This document shows positions 24,901-30,511 of a stretch of DNA of 44,004 nt, piece after piece (position 1 is the stretch's first letter; each line of letters begins with the position of its first letter). The position numbers were made by a program, and so were the translations under genes. Source of the DNA: a virus (Duplodnaviria > Heunggongvirae > Uroviricota > Caudoviricetes); the IMG/VR virus record IMGVR_UViG_2579778670_000004; one strand, written 5' to 3'. The notes beneath the pieces were generated by a model that saw only the letters and a program-made list of their open reading frames with translations, had not been told where the DNA came from and made no database searches.

Positions 24901-25389
24901 ATGGCTACCAACCCAAGAGAGCACGCCCGGCGAGTGCTGGACACGTTCTGGTGCGGGCGTGGTTTCCCTGTTGATCCAGCGAAAATTGCTCACGACATGG
25001 GATTAGATGTTTTTATTACCGATCTTCCTGGGAAAGTTTCTGGCGCACTGATTAAACAAAAAGATCAAGATCCAGCGATCTTTCTAAACAGTGATGACAA
25101 CAAAGTTCGTCAACGTTTTTCATGTGGGCATGAGTTGGGGCATTACATCGCCCGGCAAGCATCGCATAGCGATGAATATGAGTACGTTGATTTACGTGGC
25201 GAAACCGCAAGCGCCGGAACGCATCCTGATGAAATTTTTGCAAACAAGTTCGCAGCAGAACTTCTGATGCCGGTAGATGAGGTCAGAAAACTGCACGCTG
25301 ACGGTCAACCAAGTTATATAATGGCGCATTATTTTGGCGTATCTGACGATGCGATGACTTATCGTTTAAAGAACTTGAGGTTGGGGTAA
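24901..25389 (+). CDS. ImmA/IrrE-family zinc metallopeptidase (HExxH)
   Basis: 162-aa ORF with HELGHY motif and overall ImmA/IrrE (COG2856-type) pattern; GGAGGA Shine-Dalgarno. Confidence 0.7.
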   Translation: MATNPREHARRVLDTFWCGRGFPVDPAKIAHDMGLDVFITDLPGKVSGALIKQKDQDPAIFLNSDDNKVRQRFSCGHELGHYIARQASHSDEYEYVDLRGETASAGTHPDEIFANKFAAELLMPVDEVRKLHADGQPSYIMAHYFGVSDDAMTYRLKNLRLG

Positions 25390-25398
25390 CGCTTTAAA

Positions 25399-26004
25399 AT
25401 GCCATCGGATGACGATTTTAACAGCCGTTTCAAACAGGAAGTAGCACGCAGACTGAAGGATTCCCTCAACCTACACCGTCAGTTAGCAGAAGAGGTTGAG
25501 CCGGAGGACGATGAAACTCCGGTTCAGTCTCCTGACGAAGCTTCACCTCAGCCAAAGGTTTCGCACGCCCCCAAAAAAACGGCTGTCCGTATTCGCGGAA
25601 TAGCCAGAAAAAGAGCTGCCGAAGCTCGCAAAATGGCTGTAGCTGCGTCTAGCAAAAGAATTCCAACTGCTACACCCTCTCAACAAGTCACCCGTACTGA
25701 GAGTAAAATCTTGACCGAGTTCACATCTGTGAAACAGGTGAATTCACTTGATACCGAGCATGAGCGCAAACAACTCAACAACAAAGATTTTGAAGCAGAA
25801 ATCGCTCTAAAAAAACGATACGGGAAATGGTTCCTGATTATCCTTGCTTTCCAACTTCTGATAATGAATGGTGTATTTATTGCCGACGGCGCAGGTAAGC
25901 TGGAATTTGAGGATTTAACACTACAGTTGTACATGGGCGGTACTTTGACAGAGGTATTCGGCCTCGTGCTGGTCGTGACAAAATACCTTTTTAAACGCAA
26001 GTAA
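25399..26004 (+). CDS. Membrane protein with charged N-terminal region and two C-terminal transmembrane helices
   Basis: 201-aa ORF 9 bp after the peptidase stop; about 140 aa Lys/Arg/Glu-rich, then FLIILAFQLLIMNGVFIA and TLTEVFGLVLVVTKYLF helices. Confidence 0.55.
   Translation: MPSDDDFNSRFKQEVARRLKDSLNLHRQLAEEVEPEDDETPVQSPDEASPQPKVSHAPKKTAVRIRGIARKRAAEARKMAVAASSKRIPTATPSQQVTRTESKILTEFTSVKQVNSLDTEHERKQLNNKDFEAEIALKKRYGKWFLIILAFQLLIMNGVFIADGAGKLEFEDLTLQLYMGGTLTEVFGLVLVVTKYLFKRK
25933..26004 (+). repeat. Direct repeat copy 1 (3' end of membrane-protein gene)
   Basis: About 72 bp, roughly 90 percent identical to 29354..29425. Confidence 0.7.
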
Positions 26005-26248
26005 CTCTCTCGGTCCAACAGTCTTTCGAAGGCCCTGATCAAAGGGCCTTGATAAATTAGCAGTGCGTTGAAAACAGATAGTTATTCCCATCAGTTCCAA
26101 CGTAATACACATCAAAAAAATCACCATTCTTTTGCTCTAACGTCAACACCTACCCTTAAAAAAATAATTCTCCAAGAATGAGAAAGTTATTGTGTGTATT
26201 AGATAAGATATGAGCTGACACATCTATGGCGTGGAGCCAAATTTAATA

Positions 26249-26282
26249 TGACAGTCCGCTCTGTGCCATAAGCGGACTGTCA
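26249..26282. other. Perfect 11-bp inverted repeat (TGACAGTCCGC / GCGGACTGTCA) with 12-nt loop; possible terminator or protein-binding site
   Basis: Seen directly in sequence, in the intergenic space downstream of both convergent genes. Confidence 0.4.
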
Positions 26283-26466
26283 ATAAACAGATTCACTTGT
26301 AAATCTTGAAGCTATACATATTTACTTTCAATGATAAATAAAAGAACTATCCAAAAATCACTGAGAGCATATTTTAACTAACCCTCCGCTACTATTAACA
26401 TAAATTTCACCCAACCATAATTAAATTGATACATATAGCAACTTACCTTGATACGAATCATCTGGG

Positions 26467-27165
26467 TTATATTTTTCCATATTTTTTTCCGTCAAATCGA
26501 ATCATGCCAGGATCAAGAAAATTAATTAAATCGATTAACGCGTGCTGTATTCTGATTAGCCTTTCTTTATAAATTCCGATATCTCTTGTCATATTTATCA
26601 CTTCATTGTTTAAATCTAAAAAAAATGGCTCATTGATAAAGCAATTTTCCTTTGTGAAACTGCCGTAACCTATGCAATCAAATCCAGTATCTGTTGATAT
26701 CAGCATCTTTTCTGCAATAGCTCTCTGCTCTCCTATGAAAAACATAAAATACTGACCAAAGACGTCTGTTTGGATTAATGAGTTAATATTGTTCTGTAAT
26801 CTAATAAACTCCCTCATTTTTTTATTTTTTTCTAGGCTAAGGTATTGAATGTCTATGCGGGCAGCTTCTGTCCATGCAAAAAACTGGGAAAAAAGAAAAA
26901 CAGTATTGTTGATAACATAATCTTGTTGGCGCTTATTCCCATTATGATAAAACTCTTCAATGAACCCCAATTCTAATATATTATAAATACGGCTTTGTAA
27001 GTCTGAAGCTGAGCGAATTAACGGTTCAATATAGTACTGATGTTTTCTCCTTACATCCAGTGATTCATTGAGCTTGTTTATTCTATTCTGATTATAAGTA
27101 GATATAGCAATAGAGATTATAGCTATTGCACCACTAATAAAGCTTGAAATTAATGCCGTACCCAT
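26467..27165 (-). CDS. Hypothetical protein with N-terminal transmembrane anchor (unknown function, AT-rich cargo)
   Basis: 232-aa ORF; N-terminal hydrophobic helix (ALISSFISGAIAIISIAIS); low-GC codon usage unlike the phage backbone. Confidence 0.5.
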   Translation of the reverse strand: MGTALISSFISGAIAIISIAISTYNQNRINKLNESLDVRRKHQYYIEPLIRSASDLQSRIYNILELGFIEEFYHNGNKRQQDYVINNTVFLFSQFFAWTEAARIDIQYLSLEKNKKMREFIRLQNNINSLIQTDVFGQYFMFFIGEQRAIAEKMLISTDTGFDCIGYGSFTKENCFINEPFFLDLNNEVINMTRDIGIYKERLIRIQHALIDLINFLDPGMIRFDGKKYGKI

Positions 27166-28352
27166 CTAAAAGTCCTTTGATTCTTGCTTGGTTAACAAAA
27201 TGACATAATTTTATTTAATGCCATAACAACTTAACAATATATCATAATATGATTATTATGGTGTAGCTTGTCGCATCTACGCTCCATTACAAACAGATGT
27301 AAGATATAACCTATATGTTTTAGCCAGCAAATTCGAAAGCATTCAAAGTAGTCTCATCGAACTCTCGAAACCCTATGTCTTCGGGTATAAAATATTTAAA
27401 TCCATTTGCATAATATCGACTCATGTTTATTATATTCTCCCCATTCACCATTAAGATTTGACATTATTTTCAACAATCGGTTATTGCAAGATTGAAATAT
27501 ATTTTTACTTGACACAATATTCCATGTAGCCCAGCGATTCGACTTACCCCCAACTATACGGACAATCTAAATTAAATCGATGATTTTTTGATACATTCTC
27601 CTCTCTCCATTACTTTATGTTTTTGTTCCCCAAAAATACCTTGCTCTCTAAAAAATAATTGTTCTTTAAGTTCAAAATCGAGATCTACATGAGCGTTAGA
27701 TACAAAGCTAATATGTTGAAATGTCTTTCCCCCCCCATAACGGCATTGTTATCTAAACTATGTTACACAAATATAATATTACCCTTTCAACGTAATCCAA
27801 GAATAAGATTAATGCCATTATATATATCATAAATATGATATTTTGTATATTTTTATCATTTAGCCTTGATTGTACTAGGTGTACTCTCAACGAAGTAGGG
27901 AAAGTCTGTTCCTCGCTCACAGCTGCCCTTCAGTAAGCGAAAAAATGCCTACTCGGTGCCATATACAGCCATTGTTATTAACAGCAGGGAATAATTCAAA
28001 ACTGAAATTAAATATCTACCTTTTACAGTAGAAATAGTTCCTCCAGGACACTATCCATTGCCGGGCACAATCACTCGGGGTATAACGATATAAAATATGT
28101 TCATGATAGTGCAGGTTCGTATATTAAGTTCAGCAGCGAAAACATGCCTTACAGGTTTCCGGTTTTGGGAGCGTCGTTACAGGATCCTGCGCATACCGTT
28201 CCCATCTGTTGAATTAAAGGTTTCACAGCCTTTGCCGATATCACCTTTTACCTTACCTGTGATGCGTTCAGTGCTCAGCGTTGTTTACTGTAGCTCTCGG
28301 GACTGATTACAGACCGCGTCTTAAAAACCAATCCTTACTCTAAAGGGAATTC

Positions 28353-29276
28353 ATGAGATTAAAATACTCAGTACTCTTACTCGCCATTGCCCTTACAGGC
28401 TGTGATAACAAAAAAGATGAGATCGGTTGTTCTTCGGAAATAACCCAGTCAGCTCTCATGGATTTATTAAAAAAATCTGCTTATGAAGGACTCTCTGAAC
28501 AGGTCGATAAATACCCTGATGTCACTAATCAGACCAAACGAAGCACACTGGACAAGATCAAACTAGCCATCTCTGAGATCTCCACAACATCAAGTGACAC
28601 GGGCAGCACAATGAAAACTTGTGAAGGGACCGTGACGATGACTCTATCTGCGAACGAGTACGTCCAGCTTTCAGATGCTTACAGAAAGAATTTTAATCGT
28701 AATCTCGATAAGCAAATGGAAAGCCTGTTTTTGGAGAACAACGCAAACGCCTTTTCAAAACGTATCACCTACACCGTGCAGGCGACCGACGATCAGAAAA
28801 ACGTTTTTGTAAAAACCTCTACTGATAATCCGATATCAGTGGGCGCCGCTTTACTGACATCGCTTTCCATTATCACCCCGATCGTTGAGCAGCAGAAAAT
28901 CCAGCAGGCTAAGGATGCCCAACAGAGTCAAATTGAAGCGGAACAACAGGTGCAACTCAGGGCGCAAGAACAGGCTAAGTATGAGGCGGAGAAGCAAATA
29001 GAGAGACAGGCACAACTTCAGCCGCAAAAAGCTGACAACCTTGATCAGTCCCGAATGGCATTTGCGAATGCCGACTCTGATTTGAGTACCGTCTGGAGCA
29101 AGTTAACCCCGGCGAAGAAAAAAGATTTGCTGCCTTCTCAGCGTCAGTGGATCAAAACTAAGGATGCTATGTGCGGTAAAGTTTCAATGCAGGGAACAGA
29201 TGCTGAAGTCAAGAAAATGGTCGACTGCCAGACGCAAATGACCCTTTCAAGAATCGCTTTCCTCAGAAACCAATAA
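28353..29276 (+). CDS. Lipoprotein with C-terminal DUF1311 (LprI-like) domain
   Basis: 307-aa ORF; signal peptide plus lipobox LTGC; Gln/Glu-rich coiled-coil linker; C-terminal pattern QRQWIKTKDAMC...DCQTQMTLSRIAFL fits the DUF1311 signature as remembered. Confidence 0.55.
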   Translation: MRLKYSVLLLAIALTGCDNKKDEIGCSSEITQSALMDLLKKSAYEGLSEQVDKYPDVTNQTKRSTLDKIKLAISEISTTSSDTGSTMKTCEGTVTMTLSANEYVQLSDAYRKNFNRNLDKQMESLFLENNANAFSKRITYTVQATDDQKNVFVKTSTDNPISVGAALLTSLSIITPIVEQQKIQQAKDAQQSQIEAEQQVQLRAQEQAKYEAEKQIERQAQLQPQKADNLDQSRMAFANADSDLSTVWSKLTPAKKKDLLPSQRQWIKTKDAMCGKVSMQGTDAEVKKMVDCQTQMTLSRIAFLRNQ

Positions 29277-30269: not shown

Positions 30270-30511
30270 CACCACCAGCGACGCCAATCATCTGGTGGTG
30301 AGCTGTGCAGGGTTGGCGTAACCGGCTAAGTGAACCCGGCGCTTCCACAGAAGCCCCCACACAGCCCACCATAATGCGAATGTGGCCGTGCCTAACACAT
30401 AAAAAAACCGCTAACGCGGCTATGCGTCACTTAGATATCCGGGACGCCAATCCCGGCAACCGATTTTGCGGCTGCGCGGAAACTATAGCCCCGGACTTTT
30501 TCTAAGTCAAT

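Follow-up and report, generated by a model that had tools for sequence, protein, structure and literature searches.

The 1.2-kb gap between annotated genes at positions 27166-28352 of the window (the whole 44,004-nt stretch of viral DNA analysed here) is the junction of two cargo modules in a lambdoid E. coli prophage integrated at leuZ. We consider it an ordinary relic, made up mostly of a decayed nuclease-like cargo gene together with the upstream flanks of two neighbouring genes, and give this reading a probability of roughly 0.85. The left part of the gap derives from a cassette of which the first gene encoded a protein of ~150 aa, probably a nuclease with the PD-(D/E)xK fold, and the second the 232-aa membrane "lysogenic protein". 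In this lineage, the first gene is dead and the second is intact and under purifying selection. What remains of the left part is the old 5' flank of the dead gene (27739-27935) and the 154-nt intergenic region (27166-27319), and the right third of the gap (27936-28352) arrived together with the lipoprotein gene that follows it. The features on which this reading is built are, in order along the window:

About 26170-27935, minus strand: the whole cassette, once two tandem genes
26170..26466, minus strand: 3' flank of the cassette, homologous in the window, GDAR2/P2-EC58 and L005
26249-26282: hairpin with a perfect 12-bp stem, within the cassette 3' flank
26467..27165, minus strand: 232-aa gene ("lysogenic protein"), RefSeq-annotated, with an N-terminal hydrophobic segment
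27166-27935: left module, part of the ~1.8-kb cassette with the 232-aa gene
27166..27319, minus strand: intergenic segment of 154 nt, from the stop of the pseudogene to the ATG of the 232-aa gene
27241..27253: palindrome 1, ATCATA-A-TATGAT (ATCATAATATGAT), centred 82 nt ahead of the start codon (ATG) of the 232-aa gene
27320..27738, minus strand: pseudogene of the ~150-aa family, delimited by tblastn, DNA alignment and a list of lesions
27575..27748, minus strand: longest stop-free stump, 58 codons, with no usable start codon
27739..27935, minus strand: 5' flank of the dead gene and the end of the shared cassette, with homology between the window, GDAR2/P2-EC58 and L005
27824..27841: palindrome 2, ATATCATA-AA-TATGATAT (ATATCATAAATATGATAT), its centre ~95 nt upstream of the start of the dead gene
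27936..28352, plus strand: right module, the 5' flank of the LprI-family lipoprotein gene
28353..29276, plus strand: LprI-family lipoprotein gene, 307 aa, lipobox LTGC, RefSeq-annotated, the right border of the gap

An initial sequence-only reading had described the gap as an AT-rich spacer of nearly 1.2 kb with no convincing ORF. The latter claim is borne out: the longest ORF reaches 69 aa at most, each of the six frames carries 15-29 stops, and RefSeq places no feature within the gap in hundreds of genomes. The former holds for the gap overall, at a GC content of 0.356 (0.36) against 0.483 for the whole window, but the AT-richness is confined to 27166-27935 (GC 0.285-0.335), and 27936-28352 has a GC content of 0.42, as in the lipoprotein gene. 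Treating the gap as one unit was thus mistaken, for it comprises two unrelated modules that are joined at ~27935, where the GC content rises from 0.32 to 0.42; in comparisons with every other context, homology ends at ~27922-27935. The gap as such is found in 446 of the 5426 complete E. coli genomes (~8%). Strain 81009 belongs to ST131.

Each module has been found in other company. The 232-aa gene and its spacer recur together in a P2-like prophage, where they are 81% identical to the window and separate the tail-fibre assembly gene from the sheath gene; the cassette is also present in the Z-region record of P2-EC58 (AJ512683). A third context, L005, carries a copy in which the first gene is broken by a 1-nt deletion only. 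The settings of the cassette include a P2 Z-region, a lambdoid cargo region and a genomic island. All copies returned by a scan of viral contigs for more cassette diversity were identical to either the window or GDAR2, and the less-decayed type of L005 occurs in none of the complete E. coli genomes. The right module (417 nt) moves with the LprI gene, at 98% identity, in prophages that differ in what lies to its left. The gene itself matches Pfam LprI (E 4e-7) and phrog_5094 (E 4e-188), and its 5' flank contains no promoter-like site, Rfam match or protein match. The suggestion that the right module is itself an internal mosaic was rejected, the arrangement in question being an IS1-mediated deletion.

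The evidence for a dead gene at 27738->27320 is found in both protein and DNA alignments. When the intact relative P0121 was used in tblastn, its residues 7-151 aligned to window positions 27730-27338 (E 6e-19), and the DNA of the same region aligns with the intact genes of L092 and L094, starting a short distance ahead of the start codon and continuing as far as the stop. The conceptual translation has 1801 database matches to intact ~150-aa proteins, the best at E 2e-87, and protein-like segments that are common to several lineages are placed in different frames. Seven deletions (10, 2, 11, 26, 1, 2 and 1 nt), in-frame stops and frameshifts interrupt the gene. The start codon is lost, the native start and RBS region having been removed by the 10-nt deletion and a G8 run standing in its place, and the 26-nt deletion takes out SAKLTVWNEA. 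In the projected frame (HRFNLDCP....IVGGKSNRW), the catalytic D60 has changed to N and E71 to G. The dN/dS ratio of the pseudogene is 0.40, as opposed to 0.15-0.17 in intact or near-intact copies, and in one strain, 1162T7, an IS1 lies within it at 27581-27588. Since the region is homologous to the family over its full length but its frame is broken and its start lost, it is a pseudogene and not a functional family member. A decayed gene had been among the options offered for the gap from sequence alone, and for 27320-27738 (minus strand) the search for gene remnants did reveal a degraded ordinary gene.

Other protein remnants were looked for in several ways. The six frames of 27734-28352, concatenated, had no match at E<=10 among 5.8 billion proteins, and further remnants in that segment were rejected on this basis; Pfam likewise had no match in the six frames of the gap. 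The possibility that the gap holds what is left of a gene that usually adjoins "lysogenic protein" homologs was rejected as well, since tblastn of 5057 flanking ORFs from 87 such loci against the gap yielded no match.

The N-terminal stump of the pseudogene deserves separate consideration, as it covers the whole 55-residue profile of phrog_7353 (E 2.3e-42), a family of "unknown function". This profile fits the stump in the window end to end and the intact ~150-aa protein just in its N-terminal third, and phrog_7353 therefore appears to have been built from stumps of the dead gene. The existence of a PHROG family composed of such stumps, along with 58 codons that stay stop-free, could be taken to mean that the stump, a phrog_7353-type ORF of ~55 aa, is still expressed as a functional micro-protein. 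We find this extremely unlikely, considering that no start codon in the stop-free stretch of the window gives a product of at least 30 aa, that the native start and RBS have been replaced by the G8 run, that the stump contains in-frame stops in GDAR2 and P2-EC58, and that it is devoid of the catalytic core.

What the intact gene encodes can be approached through its predicted structure. The ~150-aa family has no sequence match in Pfam, NCBIfam or PDB, and three residues, D60, E71 and K73 (D60 ... E71-x-K73), are invariant in it. The AF2 model of an intact relative (pLDDT 87.4, pTM 0.81) has an alpha-beta-beta-beta-alpha-beta core, and the top Foldseek matches to this model are mostly of the PD-(D/E)xK fold, but weak (best E 5.5e-3, TM 0.46-0.57). 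PADLOC adds a hint of an REase domain, at E 0.01-0.03 only. The family probably has a PD-(D/E)xK (restriction-endonuclease-like) nuclease fold.

The second gene of the cassette has fared differently. It matches phrog_5606 at E 7e-163, is 91-93% identical to ORF1 of GDAR2/P2-EC58 and has a dN/dS ratio of 0.12-0.25; it is intact and under purifying selection. The hairpin at 26249-26282, which falls on what the P2-EC58 Z-region record calls the "left inverted repeat", is probably its terminator. On its upstream side, 27166-27319 probably contains its proximal promoter and 5' UTR. A promoter-like TTGTTA-18-TAAAAT is present at 27237-27208 (minus strand), sites of this kind occurring at chance density in this AT-rich DNA, and the divergence of the segment from GDAR2 is 0.160, near neutral. 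Distant homologs of the gene have 0-350 nt upstream only: in L008 and L007 the short proximal region must hold the promoter, and in L010 the homolog overlaps an integrase gene that lies upstream on the same strand. The 232-aa protein also matches the PADLOC model RTasTM weakly (E 1.8e-5), with most of the model covered. This match prompted us to consider a decayed reverse transcriptase or a DRT ncRNA in the gap. This candidate was rejected, for the remnant is the ~150-aa gene and an RT domain was found neither in the six frames of the gap, nor in the annotated neighbours, nor in the four homolog contexts inspected.

The gap was also examined for RNA features. Rfam gave no match in the gap at the gathering threshold or at E<=1, folding energies were no better than those of shuffles (z-scores of +0.52, -0.82 and +0.57, the first of these for the right module), and the one terminator-like site in the gap is weak and equals chance expectation. 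A regulatory RNA, whether small or structured, encoded by either strand would be in keeping with such a long annotation-free stretch, with the known sRNAs nearby in the prophage (isrK and C4, 30291-30488) and with a plus-strand promoter-like site at 27812-27839 that includes the TATGAT of palindrome 2. However, matches in the sigma-70 promoter scan occur at chance density in AT-rich DNA and carry little weight, the gap diverges at a near-neutral rate with many indels, and its best-conserved stretch is accounted for by protein-coding ancestry. Taken with the Rfam, folding and terminator results, these observations make an RNA very improbable, and the small RNA that had been proposed for the spacer finds no backing here.

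The upstream flank of the dead gene, 27739-27935, probably contains its former promoter; in loci with intact genes, homology to it is lost beyond ~60 nt upstream of the start. Compared with GDAR2, the noncoding segments show a divergence of 0.16-0.21 and the adjacent gene a pS of 0.146, and by this measure the noncoding parts of the left module diverge at about the neutral rate. Within the flank, however, the 108-nt block 27814-27921 differs from GDAR2 at 8 of 108 sites (0.074), which is 2-3 times lower than the divergence of its neighbours (P = 0.018 to 2.6e-4, by the neutral rate assumed). The old operon promoter could still be in use within this block, such that the 232-aa gene is read through the pseudogene as a leader of ~650 nt and the block is conserved for that reason. 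The pseudogene and the 232-aa gene do share a strand and are not separated by any terminator-like site, and a TATAAT directly follows palindrome 2 on the minus strand. On the other hand, the site has a poor -35 and went unreported on the minus strand in the promoter scan, the block has diverged by 0.343 in L005, and the IS1 of strain 1162T7 sits between the block and the 232-aa gene. Short proximal upstream regions suffice in most distant homologs, and a local recombination tract could explain the low divergence equally well. Continued use of the old promoter thus seems to us quite unlikely.

The two palindromes pose a related question. Their letters and coordinates are as first described, and the pattern ATCATA-N{1,3}-TATGAT occurs in the 44 kb of the window at these two places alone, both in the gap, against an expectation of 0.00. 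Palindrome 1 does lie upstream of the 232-aa gene as had been proposed; palindrome 2, previously placed with respect to the lipoprotein gene, belongs to the cassette of the 232-aa gene and not to the lipoprotein module. Single hyphenated 6+6 palindromes turn up often when the gap is shuffled (1.4 per shuffle on average, at least one in 72%), but the same arms at two separate places, for any palindrome, arise in 0.1% of 3000 dinucleotide-preserving shuffles. By eye, ~8 of 19 positions near palindrome 1 match a Fur box.

Conservation of the palindromes, as judged from three lineages, is uneven. In L005, where the segment is 37% diverged, palindrome 1 preserves every one of the 12 bases of its arms and differs in the central base; in GDAR2, P2-EC58 and L103, one of its arms has 2 mismatches, and it is missing at the aligned position in L007, a relative with 71% identity. 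L005 has no palindrome 2, whereas GDAR2, P2-EC58 and L103 carry it with 1 mismatch. Both could be operators for one dimeric regulator, encoded by the prophage or the host, that co-ordinates the two cassette promoters, an arrangement that is compatible with the pseudogene. The rarity of a same-arm pair, the lack of further copies in the window, the similar distances from the two start codons, the preserved arms in L005 despite the changed spacer base, the low divergence of the block around palindrome 2 and the TATAAT that abuts it all speak for such operators. Yet palindrome 1 carries its two arm mismatches in GDAR2, P2-EC58 and L103 even though the 232-aa gene is intact there, L005 lacks palindrome 2, and the pattern, which had no match in 95 of 98 loci, accompanies neither any intact homolog of the dead gene nor any distant homolog of the 232-aa gene. 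At a neutral divergence of 16-21%, drift alone predicts 1-2 changes per site, so that conservation with respect to GDAR2 is uninformative, and the cassette encodes no candidate regulator. We regard paired operators as possible but unlikely. At most, the palindromes would serve the two tandem genes as elements of a promoter or operator, each palindrome consisting of two back-to-back -10-like TATGAT hexamers.

The relic reading, which we prefer for the gap as a whole, accounts for less when it is taken in its pure form, because it leaves the recurrence of the palindromes, the conserved arms in L005 and the low-divergence block unexplained. These, together with the similar distances to the start codons, suggest that the flanks have retained some regulatory function. 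Pushed to its limit, this line of thought would make the cassette a former two-gene module for phage defence or lysogenic conversion, in which a small PD-(D/E)xK nuclease was paired with a membrane protein. The nuclease would have been lost in the ST131 and P2-EC58 lineages and the membrane protein would have survived with its regulatory architecture, the palindromes serving as operators of some regulator and the 108-nt block as an upstream promoter that is active to this day, with transcription passing through the dead gene. Such a combination is, in our estimation, distinctly improbable.

For annotation, the value of this result is that an unannotated 1.2-kb gap is explained by a pseudogene and gene flanks; the understanding of these elements remains unchanged. 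The cassette illustrates cargo turnover, with one gene decaying and its neighbour staying under selection. As uncharacterised cargo at prophage accessory sites, both families, that of ~150 aa and that of 232 aa, make modest candidates for phage-defence screens.

Several known systems provide points of comparison. Members of the ~150-aa family (e.g. P0121, E. coli TA054 P0129 and Yersinia P0125), to which 27738-27320 is homologous over the full length in both protein and DNA, are intact single genes that stand by themselves in islands or at accessory sites of prophages, whereas the copy in the window is broken and has the equivalents of D60 and E71 mutated. The model of the intact relative has the same order of secondary-structure elements as PD-(D/E)xK nucleases (XisH-like 2okf, CdiA-CT 4g6v, Cdn1, Cas4 and BbvCI), although the family has no significant sequence match to them. 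RTasTM is an RT-associated transmembrane protein of DRT/UG systems, "cluster 85" being located downstream of UG1/UG5 (PMC9226505); the 232-aa gene of the window shares a marginal match to it, but has no reverse transcriptase nearby, either in the window or in the contexts examined.

The closest counterpart is P2-EC58 (GenBank AJ512683), in which the same cassette, with ORF1 as a "putative lysogenic protein", is a Z-region insert of a P2-like prophage. It shares with the window the same ~770 nt upstream of ORF1 at ~81% identity, the deletions of the dead gene and the 3' hairpin. The surroundings differ: the P2-EC58 cassette is flanked by the tail-fibre assembly and tail-sheath genes, and that of the window, which belongs to a lambdoid cargo region, has an ImmA/IrrE-type gene pair on one side and the LprI-family gene on the other. 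In the literature searched, P2-EC58 is mentioned only for an Abi-P2 RT in another variable region. Its depositors annotated ORF1, a predicted promoter and flanking inverted repeats only, leaving the pseudogene unannotated, and their predicted promoter corresponds to window positions 27370-27399, inside the pseudogene. The old Z-region record of P2-EC58 gains an interpretation.

The window is a segment of the E. coli chromosome whose sequence is identical in strain 81009 (which we take to be ST131) and related genomes, and it contains a lambdoid prophage whose integration site adjoins the leuZ-cysT-glyW tRNA genes. Between a hypothetical gene of 232 aa and an LprI-family lipoprotein gene, 1187 nt carry no RefSeq feature; this gap lies in a low-GC cargo block, with the replication/ORF6N module on one side and the Q/lysis module on the other.

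Features in and around the gap
26249-26282, perfect hairpin with a 12-bp stem (TGACAGTCCGCT...AGCGGACTGTCA), downstream of the 232-aa gene
26467-27165, minus strand, 232-aa hypothetical gene (RefSeq annotation)
27166-28352, the gap
27241-27253, palindrome 1
27738-27320, minus strand, pseudogene
27824-27841, palindrome 2
28353-29276, plus strand, LprI-family lipoprotein gene (RefSeq annotation)

The sequence-only reading had described an AT-rich spacer without a convincing ORF, and this description holds: the gap has a GC content of 0.356 (window, 0.483), no ORF in it is longer than 69 aa, and each of the six frames has 15-29 stops. Of 5426 complete E. coli genomes, 446 contain the gap sequence; among the matches listed, the only annotated gene beneath it is an inserted IS1. 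The same cargo block includes, at 24901-26004 (plus strand), a gene for an ImmA/IrrE metallopeptidase (PADLOC capP, E 2.4e-25; Pfam Peptidase_M78) and, after it, a 201-aa gene for which no family match was found; the pair is kept beside different cargo in strain RM10042 and looks like a protease-type regulator module. Elsewhere in the prophage, directly upstream of the ORF6N-domain gene, Rfam matches at 30291-30488 (minus strand) to isrK (80 bits), C4 antisense RNA (75 bits) and the c4 a1b1 target (53 bits) mark what is presumably a P1/P7-type antisense immunity (c4/ant-like) module.

In a sensitive search against E. coli genomes the gap fell into two parts. Positions 27166-27923 (query 1-758) were found at 81% identity in strain GDAR2-2 with the right part missing, and positions 27952-28352 (query 787-1187) at 98% identity in other prophages with the left part missing. 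At the junction, GC content rises from 0.32 to 0.42, and homology to every other context stops at about 27922-27935. In GDAR2-2, the left part stands immediately 5' of a homolog of the 232-aa gene (91% identity), within a P2-like prophage that has a tail-fibre assembly gene on one side of the cassette and a tail-sheath gene on the other. The cassette's other end lies about 300 nt past the stop of the 232-aa gene, at about 26170; the hairpin there is perfectly conserved and kept in three of three cassette contexts, and it was not called as a terminator because the T-run that follows it is poor. A third lineage, an 85%-identical relative (loci L005 and L006) located in a separate genomic island, has the upstream region too, more diverged and interrupted by indels.

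The suggestion of a decayed gene is borne out for the core of the left module. Gene-strand translations of the three lineages have protein-like segments in common, but in different frames (for example, YYANGFKYFIPEDIGFREFDETTLNAFEF in the window and YYVNRFEHLIPEGVEFWEYDENAMNALRIY in L005). The conceptual translation of L005 matched 1801 proteins (best E 2e-87, 87% identity), and among the matches listed nearly all are intact, 147-175 aa long, with about 84-97% query coverage. Conversely, when the intact member P0121 was used as a tblastn query, its residues 7-151 aligned to minus-strand positions 27730-27338 (E 6e-19) in an alignment broken by stops and gaps. The DNA of two intact-gene loci aligns to the window over a stretch that begins about 60 nt before the start codon and ends at the stop codon. 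The copy in the window shows seven deletions against the intact gene (10, 2, 11, 26, 1, 2 and 1 nt), of which the 11-nt and 26-nt ones are common to the window, GDAR2 and P2-EC58, and in the projected frame the family-invariant D60 and E71 have become N and G. The 10-nt deletion takes out the ribosome-binding site together with the start region, and a G8 run, read as eight C at 27729-27736, occupies the exact site of the loss. Homopolymer runs of this kind are prone to slippage; even with the frame restored there, the lesions further downstream would keep the gene inactive. The dN/dS values against the intact gene (window, 0.40; GDAR2, 0.32; L005, 0.17; another intact gene, 0.15) fit a relaxation of constraint once the gene was inactivated. 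The gene is an ordinary pseudogene in a prophage cargo region, without previous annotation. In strain 1162T7 an IS1 lies within it at 27581-27588 with an 8-bp duplication; separately, an IS1-associated deletion in strain FXCREC073 has taken out the whole stretch from a baseplate gene to 28080.

At 27748-27575 lies the longest stretch of the pseudogene without a stop, a stump that matches phrog_7353 from end to end (55 residues, a PHROG of unknown function; E 2.3e-42). Because phrog_7353 covers only the N-terminal third of the intact proteins, it looks like a collection of stumps and was probably built from pseudogene fragments. The L005 copy (3377-3840; likewise L006; Logan runs ERR15315902 and SRR33842717) differs from the intact gene solely by a 1-nt deletion adjoining an A-run, which leads gene callers to split it into ORFs of 63 and 61 aa; the deletion either inactivated the gene very recently or is an assembly error.

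Divergence between the window and GDAR2 was compared by segment, with the adjacent 232-aa gene (pS 0.146, dS 0.163; dN/dS 0.12-0.25) as the yardstick.

Divergence of left-module segments, window against GDAR2
3' flank, 0.199
Intergenic region, 0.160
Pseudogene, 0.211
Proximal 5' flank (27739-27813), 0.189
Block around palindrome 2 (27814-27921), 0.074 (8/108)

Since these values are near pS and dS of the gene, most segments are drifting at about the neutral rate. The 108-nt block is exceptional (P = 0.018 or 2.6e-4, by the neutral rate assumed), and against L005 its divergence is 0.343, so that it is not conserved there. Its low divergence could reflect residual promoter function or a recombination tract.

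Both palindromes lie exactly where they had been reported. ATCATA-N{1,3}-TATGAT has two matches in the 44 kb, both within the gap (expected 0.00). In 3000 dinucleotide-preserving shuffles of the gap sequence alone, single 6+6 hyphenated palindromes were frequent (mean 1.4), and identical arms at two places arose in 0.1%; the pair is real and not an artefact of composition. Palindrome 1 has its centre 82 nt before the ATG of the 232-aa gene, palindrome 2 about 95 nt before the start of the dead gene, and each consists of two back-to-back TATGAT hexamers resembling a -10 element. In L005, 12 of 12 arm bases of palindrome 1 are kept and the central base differs; in GDAR2, P2-EC58 and L103 its arms carry two mismatches, and at the aligned position in L007, a 71% relative, it is missing. 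The GDAR2 group shows one mismatch in palindrome 2, which L005 lacks. Across the other 95 loci, all intact-homolog loci included, no copy of the pattern occurs, and no regulator gene is encoded within the cassette. Given this mixed conservation, a role as operators is possible, and conservation gives it no support.

Outside the pseudogene core, the gap consists of the flanks of two cargo genes joined by mosaic recombination. The conserved 5' flank of the lipoprotein gene makes up the right module (27936-28352), which always accompanies that gene, whatever the left neighbour. Six-frame translations of 27936-28352 and 27734-27935 matched nothing at E<=10 among 5.8 billion proteins. Rfam gave nothing at E<=1 on the right module, whose fold (z = +0.52) is no better than shuffles and in which the scan reported no promoter-like site; since no E. 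coli copy falls below 97.8% identity, conservation is uninformative here. Across the whole gap, no Rfam family and, in any segment, no unusual RNA folding were found, the single weak terminator-like site equals chance expectation, and 10 promoter-like sites compare with 10.6 expected. The small RNA that had been suggested finds no support in these predictions.

Intact members of the ~150-aa family gave no sequence match in Pfam, NCBIfam or PDB. A confident AlphaFold2 model from a 36-sequence alignment (pLDDT 87.4, pTM 0.81) has an alpha-beta-beta-beta-alpha-beta core, and its Foldseek matches, weak as they are (best E 5.5e-3, TM 0.46-0.57), are mostly PD-(D/E)xK nucleases (XisH-like, CdiA-CT, Cdn1, Cas4, cap-snatching endonucleases, BbvCI and RecE). 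An invariant D...ExK motif agrees with them, and a PD-(D/E)xK nuclease fold is probable, not proven. These genes stand alone in islands, beside defence-type genes or beside a P2-like tail-fibre assembly gene. At the last type of site (L099 vs L100, 1844-2854, minus strand), a 336-aa NOV_C-domain gene adjoining an intact homolog in a P2-like prophage is whole in one genome and in pieces of 182, 33 and 50 aa in its sister; it is another decaying cargo gene.

The 232-aa 'lysogenic protein' family (phrog_5606, loci L012-L091) is spread over Proteobacteria, Acidobacteria, Cyanobacteria and Actinobacteria, with invariant residues including E47-P48-L49, D55-L56-Q57-S58-R59 and G145-E146-Q147-R148-A149, and in the contexts inspected is mostly a lone gene at prophage accessory sites. 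In Lonsdalea (L010, 715-4729), a 42%-identical homolog overlaps the end of a P2-type integrase gene and follows an AAA_15/SMC_N ATPase and DUF4435 pair, which we take to resemble PARIS-type defence genes; this locus puts the family at a second prophage accessory site. No 'lysogenic protein' partner was seen in the contexts of intact ~150-aa members, inspected distant homologs of the 232-aa gene have 0-350 nt of upstream space without a ~150-aa partner, and ORFs flanking its homologs at 87 loci did not match the gap. It follows that the two genes are paired in this cassette lineage only. The sole annotation lead for the 232-aa protein is a marginal PADLOC match to RTasTM, the transmembrane partner of UG1/UG5 defence reverse transcriptases (PMC9226505); no reverse transcriptase is present in the gap, its annotated neighbours or the four homolog contexts inspected, and the protein is therefore not part of a DRT system.

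The closest known object to the cassette is the Z-region insert of P2-EC58. Its record (AJ512683, a 1988-bp 'proviral Z-region') is the sole phage record with the 232-aa protein and has the same layout; in the searchable literature, P2-EC58 is mentioned only in connection with an Abi-P2 reverse transcriptase, which lies in a different variable region. The deposited features are ORF1, a predicted promoter and flanking inverted repeats: the 26249-26282 hairpin is part of the 'left inverted repeat', and the depositors' promoter corresponds to window 27370-27399, within the pseudogene.
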